This document shows positions 11,783 to 19,739 of a stretch of 20,000 nt of DNA, piece after piece (within the stretch, counting starts at the first letter, position 1; each line of letters begins with the position of its first letter). A model generated the notes under the pieces. The model was not told the origin of the DNA. It did not search any database and saw only the letters and a program-made list of their open reading frames with translations. Made by a program: the position numbers and the translations under genes. Source of the DNA: Bacteriovoracaceae bacterium (GTDB taxonomy: Bacteria > Bdellovibrionota > Bacteriovoracia > Bacteriovoracales > Bacteriovoracaceae); contig JABIHA010000121.1 in assembly GCA_018649885.1 (NCBI GenBank), positions 60,983-80,982 of the forward strand, in the 5' to 3' direction.

Positions 11783-14700
11783 TTAATCGATAAAAATATC
11801 ACCTTCTTCATCGAATTCAACAGGTTGTCCAGCCGAGATAACAGACTCATCAACTTCAAATCTTTTTGCCGAAATGGCCCTTAAGATCGATGTACCATCT
11901 TCGTAGAAAGTAGCTGCACATGAGCTTGCTTTAGAAGCAGAGTTTGCAAATCTTAGCTTGTGACAGTGATCCATTGAAGAAACCTCAACTCCGTTGTAAT
12001 TTTCGTTGTCTTTAAGGTAGCCAGTTTTTACCCTACCACTCGAAAAGAAATAAACGCTATTGGTAAATTTTCTGCCATCTACTTCAATATTCACATTGGC
12101 GCCTTTGCCTTGTGAAACCATACTGATCAGACTAGTGGCGAAAAAGTTAACTGTCGTACCTGCAGGAAGAGATAATTTCCCTACAGTTGCTGCACTTGAA
12201 AGAGTAACACTCTTAGGAACCTTATTTGAATAAAAGCTATATCTTCCCAGTGCCACGTTAAAGCCTGCAATAGATGAGCCCAAAGTTGTGACTCTTACTT
12301 TTTCGACTTGATGTAAACGTCCAAAGGAAACTGCTGTTCCTTTTGAGAGTTTTACATTTCCAGAAACCCACTGTTCACCAACTGTAGCACTATCCACTTT
12401 AGAGCTGTAACCAAGTGAGAACTTTGATCCCGCTGGAAGTACTACTTCAGGAAGTGAGTCAGATTTGTAACCTTTAGGCTTTTCATTTGAATTTTTAAAT
12501 TTGTAGAGAAAAGAAAACTCTGAACCAAGGGTTCCCTCAGTAAGATTTCCCTCTTCATCAAACTCAACTACTGTTTCTGCAAGGAGAGGAATTTTTCCAT
12601 ATCTGTCATTTTCTGCAGAGACGCTAGCTCCGATTGTCCCTCTATTAATTCTTCCACTATCGTGGAAAGTCAGAAAGTCATTTGAATACCTGCCACTTGC
12701 TCTTGGTAAGAAAGTCATTCCCGCAATTTCAATTGGTTTAGAAAAAACTAATTTTGAAGGCATTCCCGACCACTTATCAAAAATCAGCTCCGCTCCTTCG
12801 GGAACAGTTATAGAGTAGTCTCTGAGTACAATACGAGGAGACTCACCTGCTGGAGATTTTACTTCTCTTAAAGATCCTTTTTCACTGAAAGCAATTACAG
12901 TTCCTTTAGGAAAAGTATGGTTTTTTAATTTCAGTGGTCCTTCCAGTCTTACCCACTTAGGGTTTGAAGTTTCTGAATTTGGAATATAAAGAGATCCCTT
13001 CGGGAAAAGTGTTCCCCAAAAATATTCTGCGTCTCCTACTACTTGATATAGTGGAGCGACTATTTTACCTGTATTATTCAAAGTTACTTTTGTTCCTTTG
13101 TCATAAAGGGCACCATTTATTGTTCTTGCTTCTGCCATTAAAAATGTTTTGAGTTTACCATTAGCATGGAAGCAAATATTTCTTTTTGCAGAATCATTAC
13201 TTACCCCTTGAAGCTTCGTAGCATGCCCTACAACTTTAAAATCTCCCAGCTCTGTGGTGTCATTTATGTAAGCACACTCAAGCTCACCCGTAGGATAAAA
13301 GCTAACCTTATGTGGTCCCTTCCAATTTCCTCTTAATTCTACTTTTTTGCCATTAAGCGTGTATTCAGTATCTTTGTACAGCTGAGCAGTTTGTAGAGTT
13401 CCATCTTCATAAAATCTCACCATTGAAGTGCCCAGTCCCCCTAAGAGGTTCAGTCCTTTATAGGTGATCTTTTCAGCAAGGTGTCCTTGTTTAACACTGC
13501 CATTTTTTCTGTAAAACTTAACTGCTCCACCATTATCTTCAAAAAATGGCTTAAAAGTAAAAAATCCTATTTTAGTAGGCTCAGAAAGGTAAGCAACTTT
13601 TGGCACACCCTTCTTACCAGCATAGAGGTCAATATAACTTCCCTTAGCAAAGTTAATTCCATTAATTGTGGCCTTGCTACCGGCCAAAACAGTACGAGGT
13701 GTACAATTTTTAAAAAAGTACCAACCTCTTTTCTTTTCTGTGATTTGCTTTTCACAAATACTCTTTAAGTTGGCCCTAAGCTCTTCAAAGTTAGCAGCCT
13801 TATCGCCTTCAAGCATTGTGATGTAGTGATAAATGTCACTTCGGTCAATTCTGGCTTTTCCTTTTTCATCGTCTTGAACAAATAATTCAACATAATCTGA
13901 AGTTTCAAACTTCTCTGAGAAATCAATAAAAATGTCATTCTTTGCACCTGGAGTAAATTTGTTGCTTCTAACAAATCTTGCCACGGCATTAAGCCCAGTA
14001 TTTTTTTCAAGTGTATTCGTTAGACTGGCCCAGTCAGTATCTTTGCTCCAATCTTTAAGCTCTTTTTTTACATCTTTTGAAGTTTGAACAACGTCTTCAA
14101 AGAAATTCAGTAAATTTTCAGTTTTCAAGTTTTTGATATTTAATGAAACTGAATCAATATTTTTTAATTCAAAATCAAGCCCTGGAAGAATTCTTCCCCA
14201 GATATTGTATTGCATGGAAGGGCCCATAACGATTTGATACTTTGGTGAGTAAACCTTCCAAAATTGATTCCCAACAAGAGGCATTCTATTAGTTACAACA
14301 ATCTCAGCTCTTTGGTAAAGCTTCCAGAAAGTCGACTGGTAGTGAACCGGCTTTTGTTGAGCATAAAAAGTGATCTCTACAACTTGCCCTGCTACTTTTC
14401 TAGTATAGGTGGTGATTTCATCACTTTCACTTTTTACAGAGTACCCATAGTCTTTAATACTCTTTTTGAAGTCTGAGACAAATTTCAAGTCGCCTTTGTC
14501 TTCTTCTGTACATCCATATCTTTTATCATTACATTTTTGAATGGAAATAAGTACTTCAACTTTTCCGTCTTTAAATAGCTCATTGTATTCAGGATACACT
14601 TTTGCCACTTTTTTATAACTAACATCTTCTTTCCAAAAAACGGCTTCATTAAAGGTTCCATCTTTTAAGTAGCATTTGTTAGCAACATGATTAAATGACC

Positions 14701-15439
14701 GAAGGAAGTTATTCATTGTTAAAATGCCACTTTGAACTTTTTCTCCCAAACATAGGTTTTTTACATCGTTCAAAACTCTTTTCCATTTAAGTCTAGGCTT
14801 TGGTAGTGCCTTTTTCTTAAGAGACTCAAGAGCGAGATCTTTTAGATCACTCACACCTAAAATTTGATAGTAAAGCTGGTGAATATTTTTGGGAGATTTA
14901 AAACTTAGATCATAGTCAGAGATCTTACCTGCACCATCTTTTAGCTCAAGCTCTCTTCTAACTGAATAAACAACATCAAGGGTTCCAGATGCTTTATTTA
15001 CCACAGTTTTATCATGGTCAATTTTAATATCTACCACTCTATTCACTTTCCAAACTTTTCCAGAGTTTAGGCCATTTGAAAATCTCATATGTTTTTTTAT
15101 CCAGTACTCAACGTTGACCGGAATGACTGAGCCATCTGCACGAACGACAGGGTAGCCTCGATTTTCGTCTCTTTGTTGATTAAAAGTGGCCTTTAAATCA
15201 TAGTAAGTTTCAGGAAGGCCAGCACTACTTCTCCACCTATCAACATAATGAACCAAAAGATGGTCTTCAAGTTTGACAGGGATTGATATTTTAGATTCAA
15301 AGCCAAAATATGTAGCCGATTTAATATTAGCAGTTAAAGGGGCCATAGCATCTTTTAATGCACCAAGATCAACAGTTGCAAAAACATTGAAACTTGATAA
15401 CAAAAACAAAGTGGAGCACAGAGCGGTAGTCTTTTTCAT
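11783..15439 (-). CDS. Large secreted hypothetical protein (1218 aa) with a C-terminal array of degenerate MORN-like beta-hairpin repeats
   Basis: Signal peptide ending NVFA. From about aa 585 there are recurring 'V.F(Y/H)..G.(L/V)....L' units (FYRKNGSVKQGHL, FYEDGTLQTAQL, FYPTGELECAYI, FHANGKLKTFLM, FHDSGRINRGTI, FDEEGNLTEGTL, FFSSGRVKTGYL). Confidence 0.75.
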   Translation of the reverse strand: MKKTTALCSTLFLLSSFNVFATVDLGALKDAMAPLTANIKSATYFGFESKISIPVKLEDHLLVHYVDRWRSSAGLPETYYDLKATFNQQRDENRGYPVVRADGSVIPVNVEYWIKKHMRFSNGLNSGKVWKVNRVVDIKIDHDKTVVNKASGTLDVVYSVRRELELKDGAGKISDYDLSFKSPKNIHQLYYQILGVSDLKDLALESLKKKALPKPRLKWKRVLNDVKNLCLGEKVQSGILTMNNFLRSFNHVANKCYLKDGTFNEAVFWKEDVSYKKVAKVYPEYNELFKDGKVEVLISIQKCNDKRYGCTEEDKGDLKFVSDFKKSIKDYGYSVKSESDEITTYTRKVAGQVVEITFYAQQKPVHYQSTFWKLYQRAEIVVTNRMPLVGNQFWKVYSPKYQIVMGPSMQYNIWGRILPGLDFELKNIDSVSLNIKNLKTENLLNFFEDVVQTSKDVKKELKDWSKDTDWASLTNTLEKNTGLNAVARFVRSNKFTPGAKNDIFIDFSEKFETSDYVELFVQDDEKGKARIDRSDIYHYITMLEGDKAANFEELRANLKSICEKQITEKKRGWYFFKNCTPRTVLAGSKATINGINFAKGSYIDLYAGKKGVPKVAYLSEPTKIGFFTFKPFFEDNGGAVKFYRKNGSVKQGHLAEKITYKGLNLLGGLGTSMVRFYEDGTLQTAQLYKDTEYTLNGKKVELRGNWKGPHKVSFYPTGELECAYINDTTELGDFKVVGHATKLQGVSNDSAKRNICFHANGKLKTFLMAEARTINGALYDKGTKVTLNNTGKIVAPLYQVVGDAEYFWGTLFPKGSLYIPNSETSNPKWVRLEGPLKLKNHTFPKGTVIAFSEKGSLREVKSPAGESPRIVLRDYSITVPEGAELIFDKWSGMPSKLVFSKPIEIAGMTFLPRASGRYSNDFLTFHDSGRINRGTIGASVSAENDRYGKIPLLAETVVEFDEEGNLTEGTLGSEFSFLYKFKNSNEKPKGYKSDSLPEVVLPAGSKFSLGYSSKVDSATVGEQWVSGNVKLSKGTAVSFGRLHQVEKVRVTTLGSSIAGFNVALGRYSFYSNKVPKSVTLSSAATVGKLSLPAGTTVNFFATSLISMVSQGKGANVNIEVDGRKFTNSVYFFSSGRVKTGYLKDNENYNGVEVSSMDHCHKLRFANSASKASSCAATFYEDGTSILRAISAKRFEVDESVISAGQPVEFDEEGDIFID

Positions 15440-16283: not shown

Positions 16284-17057
16284 ATGTATATCAAGCAGCT
16301 CTTATTGGTCTCCCTAGCAATTCTATTTTGCTCATGTGGAAATGGTGTAGATGACGAAAAGTCTAATCAAAGCACCAGCACTGATGCAACTTCAAAAACA
16401 CAATATGTTGAAAAAATTGTTACTCAAGTTGAAAATACATGGGGACTTGATTTTGTATCGACCCCCATTGACCAGGCATCAGCTGCAGAAATCGAGGCGT
16501 CTAAGGCAGTTGCATATGTCAATTATCGTGAAGGCGGATGTGCTACAGGTTTTTTTATTTCTGATGATGGATTATTTCTCACAAATGAGCACGTACTGAG
16601 TCGGCAAAGATGTCACAAAGGAAAATGTCCAAACATTAAAATTATCAGAGATTATAAAATTGGTGGAGCAATAGAAGTTTATGATGATTTTGAAGTACTT
16701 GCTCACAATTATTCTCTTGACTACGCCCTGGCCAAAGTAAAATTAAAAGATGGAGAAAAAGTTCCCTTTCTCAAAATGGAATGGTCTGGAGCAACTGAAG
16801 CAAAAAATTTCGAAGGAAGTGATTTAAAAATCATTGGTCATCCAAATTGCTCCTCTCTTAGGACAGGTAATGCAATATTTAGCTACGGCCAAGATCAAAA
16901 CCTGGTACTTAGAAGTATAGCCATATCCGGAAATAGTGGGAGTCCGTTATTTGATCTCACGACAAAAAAAGTGGTAGGACTCTATCACGCATCTTATATG
17001 GACTATCCCCTATCTGTATTCATTTTAGTCATAAAAACCACATATCTCAAATCCTGA
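16284..17057 (+). CDS. Trypsin-like (S1) serine protease lipoprotein, probably truncated or altered at the C-terminus
   Basis: Lipobox-like FCSC and catalytic triad TNEHV / DYAL / GNSGSP. The tail after VVGLYHAS does not resemble a normal S1 C-terminus. Confidence 0.8.
   Translation: MYIKQLLLVSLAILFCSCGNGVDDEKSNQSTSTDATSKTQYVEKIVTQVENTWGLDFVSTPIDQASAAEIEASKAVAYVNYREGGCATGFFISDDGLFLTNEHVLSRQRCHKGKCPNIKIIRDYKIGGAIEVYDDFEVLAHNYSLDYALAKVKLKDGEKVPFLKMEWSGATEAKNFEGSDLKIIGHPNCSSLRTGNAIFSYGQDQNLVLRSIAISGNSGSPLFDLTTKKVVGLYHASYMDYPLSVFILVIKTTYLKS
16996..17007 (+). repeat. Left copy of direct repeat ATAYGGACTATC
   Basis: ATATGGACTATC is 11/12 identical to 18126-18137. Confidence 0.5.
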
Positions 17058-17060
17058 GAC

Positions 17061-17108
17061 AATTATTTACTTCTTTATTTGATGCGGAATAATTGATAGT
17101 AAATAATT
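17061..17108 (+). promoter_or_regulatory. Sigma70-like promoter inside an inverted repeat, upstream of the candidate ncRNA
   Basis: TTGATG (17079-84)-N17-AATAAT (17102-07). Perfect 11-bp IR AATTATTTACT (17061-71) / AGTAAATAATT (17098-108). Confidence 0.4.
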
Positions 17109-17115
17109 AGAGGAC

Positions 17116-17358
17116 CGTCAAAAAAAAGCAACCACACCTAGGTGGCGAGAGTCGACAGACCCCGGGGCCATGATGAGAATGGATTCAATCTATCAGCGAA
17201 CATGTAACGGGCTCTAGAGTTTAAAACGAAGGCCAGAAGACTCTAGCGGAAACGCCTCGACGATCGAGATTAGGACGATCACCATAGCGCCATATGAAAG
17301 TTAATAAGTCCCTACCTAGAGTTCGGCAAGAAGTAGTGTGGTTTTCTTTTTTTCGATG
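17116..17358 (+). ncRNA. Unidentified structured ncRNA candidate (about 243 nt) with base-paired ends
   Basis: The ends pair (CGTCAAAAAAAAG-c-AACCACAC with GTGTGGTT-tt-CTTTTTTT-c-GATG). Inner stem CTAGGTGG/CTACCTAG. Hairpins at 17214-17246, GCG-GAAA-CGC and CTCGA-cga-TCGAG. The region is GC-richer than its flanks. G-U wobbles and the GNRA loop favour the + strand. Confidence 0.6.
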
Positions 17359-17402
17359 CAATTGCTACAGATAGAGTTATTCCTATTAAGAAGTAAAAAA
17401 AC

Positions 17403-17597: not shown

Positions 17598-18167
17598 CTA
17601 TCTTCCCCCGCATACAAGATTATTTGAGGTTTGATTTCTACCACTTAACAAATTATTAGTGGGATTTAAATTACCAGAACTTCGTTTACCTGGAGTATAT
17701 AACAATTCAGATCCACTAGCATCATTTATTATTTTAGCCGAGCTATTGGTTATTGCATTCAAGAAAGAATATGCTCCAGCAGCCCCTGCAAGAAGTCCAA
17801 CTCTAATGGTCGCGGGATTTTTTGAGGTTGCTGCAACTCCAAAACCAAATACTGCCGTAGCCCCAGAAACAGCAATCCGGGTCGATCTTTGTACTTTTGG
17901 ATCAGCTGCAACTTTTTGAGCTTTTTTTACAGTTGCTTTGATTTCATCTTTGTAAATATATGTTGCAACTGTAACAGCGACAGCACCTAATACCGCTAAT
18001 AAGCTAACATTTCCACTCGGGTCTACAAACTCAGATGGATTATTAAGTGCATATCTATAAAGGTTTGTGTCACCACCGTACAATCCACTAGGATCAAGCG
18101 AAAGAAATCGAGCAGAATTAGGATCATACGGACTATCAGGAAAATTTAGGGCTACAGCCATACTCAT
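17598..18167 (-). CDS. Orphan Rhs fragment: end of the Rhs core plus a variable, hydrophobic C-terminal toxin
   Basis: YDPNSARFLSLDPSGLYGGDTNLYRYALNNPSEFVDPSG is the Rhs-associated core signature ending in DPxG. The main YD-repeat body is absent. The CT has Gly/Ala-rich hydrophobic helices. Confidence 0.85.
   Translation of the reverse strand: MSMAVALNFPDSPYDPNSARFLSLDPSGLYGGDTNLYRYALNNPSEFVDPSGNVSLLAVLGAVAVTVATYIYKDEIKATVKKAQKVAADPKVQRSTRIAVSGATAVFGFGVAATSKNPATIRVGLLAGAAGAYSFLNAITNSSAKIINDASGSELLYTPGKRSSGNLNPTNNLLSGRNQTSNNLVCGGR
18126..18137 (+). repeat. Right copy of direct repeat ATAYGGACTATC, at the Rhs homology breakpoint
   Basis: ATACGGACTATC. Its ATA is the antisense of the Tyr codon that begins the recognisable 'YDP' Rhs motif. 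Confidence 0.5.
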
Positions 18168-18287: not shown

Positions 18288-19523
18288 TTAGCTCCCACTT
18301 ATCAGCCTTTGCCGATACCCAAAACCTATTCGAGTATTTGCAATCGGAGAACCCGCAGTCAAATTTCCTGCTGTAGCTTGAATTAGATACCTATAATCAA
18401 GTATCCACTCTTTGAAAAAAGGGTTAGCAAAATAATACTGTCCATTAGGCTTATAAATATATTCTTTCTTTTCCAAGGCATTTAGAGCATTTGTAACTGC
18501 ACCGGGGCTTTTAACTCCAATCGTTTTTTGAAAGGCCTTTCCAAAGAATTTTATATCATTTTGTTCTTGTGCCCCTGCAAGCTGGACTATTAGGTTTTTT
18601 TGCACTTTTGTTAGCTCTTTTCCATCGAGAATATTTTTAAAATACTTTTGCTCATTCTTATAAATTATTTCTAAAACAACAAAAAAAGCCTCAATATTTA
18701 GGTGAGTTCCCTCTGGTAAACTATCAAAGGCCACTCGGCAAAAAGTTTGAATATCTCCAGTAACACCGTAGCAAATTTGGTAAAGGTAATCATAGGCATC
18801 TTGCTCTAAAATGATCTTTTTTTTCTTAAAACGGGTCGATATAAACTTATAGAAAATATCTGCCTCTATATGCTCGAAATAGATAATTTCAGCTTGTTTA
18901 AAGAAAGGAGAGCTTTGATCTCTAAAGATGTGATCCATTTCATGCCTGATACTACCTACATACATAAAGGGGATTCTCGTAATTTTTTGAATTTTTCCCC
19001 TCATATACTTGAGTATTGCCTCGCCGTTTTCTACCTCTTTAATCGCTTGAAATTCATCGAATAAAATAACTACTTTCCCCTTAGTTCTTTTTACTGTTTC
19101 GTTCAAAAACTCAAAGGCAACATTCAATGTTTTTTTATATTCTTGTCCTTTTGTTCCAACACCAAAAGAAACCCCACTCTCTGTTATATCGAATTTGGGA
19201 GTTAAACGGCTTGCTAAATCTAAAACTTTCTTGCCATCCCAAACATGGCTTAAAACCTTCATACAGGCATCTATAATGGATTCAGCTATATCAGACGGTT
19301 CGGTAATATGATAAAGGTCTATATCCACCTTATAATAACCTTTCATCCCATCAATTACATGATGGGCGGTGGAAGTTTTGCCAATTCTTCGATCACCAAT
19401 GAGTGCTAAGTTGTGACCGCTTTCTAGCTTTTTTAAGATTTTTTCTTCTACCTCTTTTCTAGGGCAGTAATCTCCCTTTGATACGATGGAATCATCAATA
19501 AATGGGTTTTTTGCTCTATTCAC
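18288..19523 (-). CDS. AAA+/STAND-like 'archaeal-type' ATPase with C-terminal winged helix
   Basis: N-terminal NPF...REV, Walker A GDRRIGKT, Walker B VVILFDEFQ and GS sensor. The C-terminal 'AVTNALNALEKKEYI...YYFANPFFKEW' is wHTH-like. GTG start with a purine-rich RBS. Confidence 0.85.
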   Translation of the reverse strand: MNRAKNPFIDDSIVSKGDYCPRKEVEEKILKKLESGHNLALIGDRRIGKTSTAHHVIDGMKGYYKVDIDLYHITEPSDIAESIIDACMKVLSHVWDGKKVLDLASRLTPKFDITESGVSFGVGTKGQEYKKTLNVAFEFLNETVKRTKGKVVILFDEFQAIKEVENGEAILKYMRGKIQKITRIPFMYVGSIRHEMDHIFRDQSSPFFKQAEIIYFEHIEADIFYKFISTRFKKKKIILEQDAYDYLYQICYGVTGDIQTFCRVAFDSLPEGTHLNIEAFFVVLEIIYKNEQKYFKNILDGKELTKVQKNLIVQLAGAQEQNDIKFFGKAFQKTIGVKSPGAVTNALNALEKKEYIYKPNGQYYFANPFFKEWILDYRYLIQATAGNLTAGSPIANTRIGFGYRQRLISGS

Positions 19524-19537
19524 ACGCTTTCCCTTCT

Positions 19538-19615
19538 TTACTCAGATTTGAGTAATTTTTTATTATCTTACTCGAAATTGAGTAAAATATCAATTTTTTA
19601 CTCTAACTTGAGTAA
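19538..19615. promoter_or_regulatory. Three palindromic operators TTACTC-N6-GAGTAA at exact 30-bp spacing
   Basis: Copies at 19538-19555, 19568-19585 and 19598-19615, directly upstream of the ATPase start. Confidence 0.8.
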
Positions 19616-19739
19616 AATAGAGGGTGGCTCATTTAGTCATTTTAAAGGGTTAGATACTATACTCCGGCCCTTCCCAAAAAGGCCGTTTTTCCTGTAGGCC
19701 ATTAATAATGAGAATTATCTCAAATTTCAGGAGGCAAAA

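Follow-up and report, generated by a model that had tools for sequence, protein, structure and literature searches.

An apparently undescribed RNA of about 235 bases, doubly knotted, on a mobile cassette of predatory Bdellovibrio-like bacteria

What is the structured stretch that lies between a protease gene on the plus strand and, on the minus strand, an ORF of 61 codons as well as an orphan Rhs tip? The locus (Table 1) stands out in the window, that is, the whole 20,000-nt stretch of DNA analysed here, by its composition: the RNA core has 50% G+C, compared to mostly 30–44% across the window. A reading made from the sequence alone had pointed to this GC-richer island, and the motifs it named are present where it placed them. 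It had given the element the extent 17116–17358 and put it inside an Rhs cassette. The unit is larger than that, and the conserved RNA in it starts earlier, at G17110. It adjoins the Rhs tip without lying within it, and the tip is a bystander with no special tie to the RNA. Overlooked in that reading was the multi-copy, mobile character of the element, with which we begin.

Table 1. Features of the RNA, its cassette and the adjoining genes (positions in the window)
Feature	Position	Strand	Basis or remark
Conserved RNA, about 235 nt, putative ends	17110..17341	+	covariance model match 17109–17301, 137 bits
Core domain	17110..17258	+	covariation
P1a	17110–13/17255–58	+	covariation
P1b	17115–17/17247–49	+	covariation
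P2	17132–35/17142–45	+	covariation
P3	17161–64/17208–11	+	covariation
P4, varies by subfamily	about 17170–17205	+	
P5, with closing pair 17227/17239	17214–19/17241–46	+	covariation
Pseudoknot 1, 17166–69 with P5 loop 17231–34	17166..17234	+	paired cells 98.2% in A2, 92.9% in A4
Pseudoknot 2, two pairs: C17253–G17300, A at 17251–52 with U17301	17251..17301	+	
3' domain: hairpin P6 17262–66/17276–80, P7 outer stem 17290–95/17336–41	17262..17341	+	
Extended −10 box, imperfect, placed as in the family; putative promoter	17094..17102	+	one consensus base missing in this copy
U-rich tail, possible terminator in this copy	17342..17353	+	sequence
Whole cassette without genes, 384 bp	17000..17383	+	bounds are start and stop of homology to other copies in this genome
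Left end of cassette	17000..17018	+	common to copies on C52, C44, C126, C8, C21
Right end of cassette	17365..17383	+	common to copies on C52, C8 (two), C21, C122, C4
Trypsin-like protease gene, truncated; host gene, outside the element	16284..17057	+	Pfam Trypsin_2
Orphan Rhs tip	17598..18167	−	TIGR03696, 43.4 bits, above cut-off

Additional copies, with identities of 72–86%, are present in the same genome (5.4 Mb, 92% complete), where the family profile detects 16 copies, whole or partial. Pattern scans gave at least 121 stretches in genomes and 108 in metagenomes. Profile searches upheld most of the genome-scan stretches in records titled Bdellovibrionota as well as 59 of the metagenome loci, while 31 genome loci, nearly all from other groups, were confirmed neither by the profile nor by the covariance model. 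The search for further copies in the genome and its relatives, which had been proposed from the sequence alone, thus yields about 197 distinct copies after de-duplication. With the covariance model, the RNA is found in at least 37 of 150 genomes of its own phylum (a lower bound, as 17 candidates per genome were scored), with 1–7 copies each, and in none of 222 genomes of two other phyla (121 and 101). The spread is patchy, three quarters of the sampled genomes of the phylum being without the RNA. Two assemblies titled Chlamydiae and Roseivirgaceae hold true copies on short contigs, and these contigs may be misbinned. Plasmids AP029177 and AP029178 of Bdellovibrio sp. HAGR004 carry one copy apiece, and RNA copies from two different families are 93% identical over 229 nt. 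In viruses, the exact core pattern has no match; a looser pattern gives 29 matches, for which the best model score is no better than E 0.03, and the 120 viral stretches that fit a 15-base end pattern are taken as chance. A phage collection contains no match to the RNA.

As the earlier reading had supposed, the element matches no catalogued class, Rfam giving no match to it in the window or in 12 homologous loci. tmRNA, group I and II introns and RNase P were also considered and rejected, their helix order being different and their Rfam models unmatched. No description of the RNA family was found in the literature searched; an unnamed cluster in a 2026 bioRxiv atlas may already contain the motif. 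The words Bdellovibrio and Bacteriovorax are absent from the main text of PMC11109978, and the word Bdellovibrio from the text of the 2026 bioRxiv atlas. The large structured RNA is apparently undescribed; the mobile cassette that carries it is of a known kind.

The conserved fold was derived from an alignment called A2, which contains 55 of 65 non-redundant full-length copies; the other ten, with long insertions or damage, were excluded. RNAalifold recovered only 10 pairs from a first rough alignment, and the structure was therefore built from mutual information, which on A2 gives P1a, P1b, P2, P3, P5 and the two pseudoknots. In all, the fold of the family comprises seven helices plus two pseudoknots. 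In A2, 92.7% of the cells are paired and 20 of 30 pairs have two-sided changes; none of 500 shuffles reaches as high a value, and slid controls are 27–38% paired. Very similar values are obtained with A4, an alignment of 78 distinct copies from loci outside the model building (a few may repeat a model sequence), namely 92.6% paired cells and two-sided changes in 23 of 28 pairs. A4 was fitted to the nested helices only, the pseudoknots being absent from the model, and yet each pseudoknot has 92.9% of its cells paired, while slid controls over both alignments give 27–41%. The pseudoknot 2 pair is C–G in 60 and G–C in 11 of 77 copies in A4, and in 43 and 11 of 55 in A2. For P7a, the best of three registers has 208 of 222 cells paired, compared to 154 of 222 for a partner of the type proposed from the sequence alone. 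All 25 core pairs are formed in the present copy. The two-pseudoknot fold is kept under strong selection.

This fold differs from the one suggested previously. The long closing helix and the nested helix CTAGGTGG/CTACCTAG do occur in the minimum-energy fold of this copy, but over the 54 other aligned copies both are paired near chance, the former in 169 of 407 cells and the latter in 38 of 146; for CTAGAG/CTCTAG, the value in the same copies is 318 of 324. The strands of these two long helices belong to P2 and P7 in the family fold. For this copy, the previous fold has an energy of −62.5 kcal/mol, compared to −38.9 kcal/mol for the nested family fold, in a calculation where the pseudoknots are unscored and P3 is constrained one base off register, and the previous fold may be a copy-specific alternative. 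The proposed conformational switch would depend on pairings that only this copy has. The folding energy of 17116–17358 corresponds to z = −2.17 (4 of 200 shuffles are as good). The opposite strand folds better, with z = −3.90, which means that energy alone cannot choose the strand.

There are 30 G·U cells compared to 10 A·C cells on the plus strand, and this excess points to an RNA on that strand. Directly upstream, TGnTAnnnT ending 5–10 nt before P1 occurs in 27 of 114 non-redundant copies, compared to a mean of 1.3 and a maximum of 7 in shuffles, and plain TAnnnT at the same distance in 42, compared to 22.6 by chance; kin among these copies are not independent, and the box is present in several subfamilies. 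The covariation, the G·U bias and this promoter motif support, at the level of sequence, the earlier proposal of a structured RNA on the plus strand, and the extended −10 box before P1 suggests that the family has a promoter of its own. The particular promoter proposed before, TTGATG-17-AATAAT, is indeed found by a scan, as one of 4 sites where 2.0 are expected, but its −10 box ends at 17107, two bases before P1, so that the RNA would start inside helix P1. A U-rich tail is a weak trait of the family, with 39 of 106 copies compared to 27 on the opposite strand. We infer that the fold is that of an RNA transcribed from the cassette's own promoter.

Turning to the DNA around the RNA, the copies have about 110–150 bp in common upstream and 20–60 bp downstream, after which the sequences diverge abruptly. 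The boundaries are sharp between genomes also; in one example, 343 bp on the upstream side are 96.8% identical and 142 bp on the downstream side 99.3%. Each end carries a core near TAYYYGT within an imperfect inverted repeat, and 52 of 166 elements have inverted end pairs in which 7 or more of the 8 core bases match; comparison of the two ends of the present cassette shows that they too are imperfectly inverted. In several elements, private variants are common to both ends over 11–24 bp. A second subfamily has longer flanks, of about 345 and 150 bp, with inverted arms beside a short direct core, and internally deleted forms of 90–190 bp retain both ends. At one subfamily's ends there is a REP-like hairpin, which is part of the cassette ends, with no empty doublets among the loci read. 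The genes next to the copies, and their orientation, differ from copy to copy, and none recurs among the 691 ORFs located up to 3 kb away. Tyrosine recombinases (10) and Rhs pieces (9), together with IS66 and toxin-antitoxin genes, form the largest clusters among these ORFs, which is the usual content of variable islands.

In the window itself, the left end of the cassette overwrites the protease gene from residue 239, and the homology of the protease ends at 16994–17003. Its longer relatives (n = 13) have 496–563 aa; the missing C-terminal half was not found in this assembly, nor was an empty target site found in this genome. The cassette is a discrete mobile unit, present at unrelated sites, that truncates genes, and in this way it seems to remodel variable islands in the genomes of predatory bacteria. 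A direct repeat of at least 4 nt, indicative of target duplication, was seen in 0 of 27 elements, and the ends are placed to a few bases; a duplication of 2–3 nt is possible. No transposase lies consistently inside the ends in the about 197 copies. A parent insertion sequence with the same ends was found neither near the copies, nor by the end pattern in 401 genomes, nor among the transposase types searched for in this genome.

The closest known carriers are the prokaryotic MITEs (Correia, ERIC, RUP and similar; PMC10969869) and the mobile/repeat sequence candidates of PMC11109978. By the features given in these two sources, the cassette resembles both in being gene-less and a few hundred bases long, in its inverted ends, its multiple copies and inconsistent neighbours, and in the inactivation of genes, and like a MITE it must be moved in trans. 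By the same account it differs from MITEs in having no target duplication, in its few and diverged copies, in the occurrence of the same RNA with two types of ends, and in its interior, where a covarying fold with two pseudoknots and a putative promoter takes the place of a simple stem-loop. The cassette is MITE-like in behaviour but fails the duplication test, and its RNA is far more elaborate.

On the basis of these results, the reading that we prefer, with a probability of about one half, is that of a non-autonomous mobile cassette whose RNA aids its spread or persistence through an unlinked protein. A role of the RNA in movement or persistence is suggested because full-length copies that have spread between families keep the fold. 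In the mechanism considered, the cassette would consist of the left end, the promoter, the RNA gene and the right end. The RNA would be transcribed from the cassette promoter and would bind or regulate a protein encoded elsewhere, which, supplied in trans, would act on the ends and move the cassette without target duplication. If this protein is an IS91-like transposase, the cassette would be a parasite of IS91-like elements. Whatever its role, the RNA family has a well-supported fold, about 200 members, defined ends and a putative promoter. Few large RNAs with several pseudoknots are known in bacteria, and those carried by mobile DNA have time and again proved to be ribozymes or scaffolds of programmable enzymes. 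The copies on the two plasmids of the cultured, named strain HAGR004 make transcription, structure, partner and mobility directly testable.

The best candidate for this mover is a rolling-circle transposase of the HUH type, IS91/ISCR-like. It would explain why duplications are absent, why deletions are one-sided and why many copies are cut at varied points. Two IS91-like Y2 transposases are encoded in this genome, together with 21 copies of a 120-bp IS91-like right end, which by its position is taken for oriIS (PMC13393415). The IS91-like element itself measures about 1.7 kb (G000 C138, C63 and 21 sites), and solo copies of its right end are dispersed, several of them at contig ends. Of 20 cassette copies, five have an IS91-like right end within 2.5 kb, compared to 1.3% of random points. 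Relative to that end, the cassette occupies the inner side in 9 of 10 distinct rows among the fetched loci and in 5 of 6 in this genome, with one case in both sets. Related ends from other genomes are found beside copies in L417, L480, L482, L483, L492 and L616, again with the cassette mostly on the inner side, and in four cases (L417, L482, L483 and C21) the cassette ends are fused directly to IS91-like fragments. The transposase is present in 13 of 37 RNA-positive genomes compared to 18 of 113 others (Fisher p = 0.019, with kin not independent).

In the remaining 24 of the 37 RNA-positive genomes the IS91-like transposase was not found, and the covariance model detects no RNA copy in 30 loci around IS91-like genes. 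Outside this genome, the control for co-location covers only 92 kb compared to 1.23 Mb and shows little. Sequence likeness between the cassette and the local IS91-like element is confined to the flank of one copy. A large RNA is not known to us from IS91 elements. The two ends of IS91-type elements are distinct, and such elements can move adjacent DNA (PMC13393415), whereas the cassette has no transposase and its ends are inverted copies of each other and not a distinct oriIS and terIS. The cassette and the IS91-like ends may simply accumulate in the same variable islands, and shared hot spots may explain all of these associations. The assignment of the mover to the IS91/ISCR-like transposases is tentative, with the odds rather against it.

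Other possible partners were examined as well. The single reverse transcriptase of this genome, a lone 438-aa protein whose nearest models are UG17/UG26 (G000 C141 14099–15412), was rejected: its gene is on another contig and has no close relative in 149 other genomes. Within 3 kb of the copies, reverse transcriptase genes occur at three loci only, one of which is an intron inserted into the RNA. At that locus, L200 (G314:C84, 2356–4604), a group II intron reverse transcriptase gene on the opposite strand splits one RNA copy at P5. Y1 transposases were rejected too, being present in 25 of 37 RNA-positive genomes and 103 of 150 overall (p = 1.0). Three RAYT-like Y1 transposases of this genome, two of which were tested and fall below the NCBIfam cut-off, stand beside tandem short repeats of differing sequence (G000 C65, C118, C93 and C46). 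The cassette also differs from REP/REPIN and TIRYT elements, in that there is no co-occurrence with Y1 and in that the TIRYT consensus, as published (PMC6006769), differs from the cassette ends. IS630 is absent from this genome, and the one next to L112 possesses a right end of its own. IS21 is an independent insertion with a 5-bp duplication; at L616 (AP029177, 16329–20232) it is about 80 bp upstream of the RNA, which, with IS21 removed, would follow a tyrosine recombinase gene at a distance of about 130 bp.

Some copies have tyrosine recombinases, IS66, IS21 or toxin-antitoxin genes nearby. For the tyrosine recombinases, 5 of the 197 de-duplicated copies have one within 1.5 kb, compared to about 1% of random points (a few more are lost to de-duplication or stand behind an IS); this co-location fits the location in islands and shows no partnership. 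The cassette ends abut or are near truncated tyrosine recombinase genes at L478, L429 and L110. A two-gene module, of a small helix-turn-helix-like protein and a nucleotidyltransferase-like protein, is near copies at L028, L210, L483 and L616.

The alternative that survives best is that the RNA is cargo that benefits the host, for example as an antitoxin, a protein sponge or an anti-phage RNA, that the ends merely carry it, and that host selection keeps the fold. The putative promoter would be expected in this case, copies do reside on plasmids, and the neighbours are often of toxin-antitoxin or defence type (HipA, AbiEii, PIN, Fic, HigBA-like pairs), with the toxin-antitoxin pair at L088 bracketed by two convergent copies. 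However, no single toxin recurs, the genomes carry several diverged copies, many of them broken, and the RNA is missing from three quarters of the sampled genomes. We regard cargo as possible but improbable.

A bolder version of the preferred reading, to which we give somewhat less credence still, is that the cassette represents a new class of RNA-dependent mobile element, which would be free of protein and whose doubly pseudoknotted RNA would capture or steer an enzyme that belongs to another element, either a transposase (an IS91-like rolling-circle one being the most plausible) or a recombinase, or would do part of the chemistry. If this were true, we would have an RNA gene behaving as a satellite of insertion sequences.

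It is also conceivable that the RNA itself is catalytic or semi-catalytic, for example by cleaving or joining nucleic acid for the movement of the cassette. The compact double-pseudoknot core with its invariant unpaired bases around P5 and P1 would suit such a function, and a partner gene was not found among the flanking ORFs. Against this, no ribozyme model in Rfam matches, and, judging from the anatomy, the promoter and both ends are outside the RNA, so that a copy of the RNA could not rebuild the cassette. We therefore consider catalysis unlikely.

Another option is that the fold does its work in single-stranded DNA, while the cassette moves by rolling circle, and never as an RNA. The association with ends of HUH-type elements would favour this, but the promoter box at a fixed distance before P1 and the G·U bias speak against it. 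Loops rich in purines and short pseudoknot pairs, both present in the family, are typical of RNA. This option is quite unlikely.

Even less probable is that the RNA is an OMEGA-like or bridge-like guide scaffold, orphaned from an RNA-guided nuclease or recombinase whose gene is lost or elsewhere. The size, the pseudoknots and the gene-less multi-copy habit are reminiscent of such RNAs. The HEARO or omega RNA of IscB elements is large, pseudoknotted and on a mobile element, often without a protein gene, and all of this applies to the cassette RNA. Unlike it, however, the cassette RNA shows no sequence or model match (neither HEARO nor any other Rfam family), no ORF-bearing copy was found, the cassette has inverted ends, and no unpaired, variable guide segment of fixed length is visible in the alignments. 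The bridge RNA of IS110/IS1111 is a double-loop structure beside a recombinase gene (bioRxiv 10.64898/2026.10.21.760802). The likeness lies in a structured RNA within a mobile element and, for one cassette subfamily, in a short core repeat between inverted arms, while a double variable loop is not seen in the cassette RNA and its segments do not match the cassette's own ends (52 inverted-end elements; 6.4 nt, compared to 6.3 nt for the ends of other copies). No IS110 gene is near any copy, and neither IS110 nor TnpB has a match in this 92% complete genome. IscB/IsrB gave no match in this genome either, in a search that matched nothing in control genomes as well. By the features tested the cassette RNA is neither a retron nor a bridge RNA, and it matches no omega RNA model.

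Finally, the suggestions made from the sequence alone, that this is a retron-type (msr-msd; PMC11701397) or defence reverse transcriptase RNA or a regulator of Rhs-immunity genes, can be practically dismissed: pairable termini, as in retrons, and a TAG exist in this one copy, and the genome has a reverse transcriptase, but the terminal pairing is not conserved in the family, 2 of 54 copies have the 'branch' G, none of the 115 flanking ORFs encodes a reverse transcriptase, the one in the genome is unlinked and unshared, and Rhs pieces, at 9 of the 691 neighbouring ORFs, are no recurring neighbour, with neighbours and orientations that vary.

A few further observations were made along the way. 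Convergent pairs of copies bracket at least one gene at L088, L031, L113, L055 and L098, in an arrangement resembling a composite transposon, the genes at L088 being a toxin-antitoxin pair. Elsewhere in the window, a 1218-aa ORF (11783–15439) has a weak match to a MORN variant only, and repeated inverted boxes TTACTC..TGAGTAA at 19538–19617, 5' of an AAA ATPase gene (18288–19523), are possibly operators.
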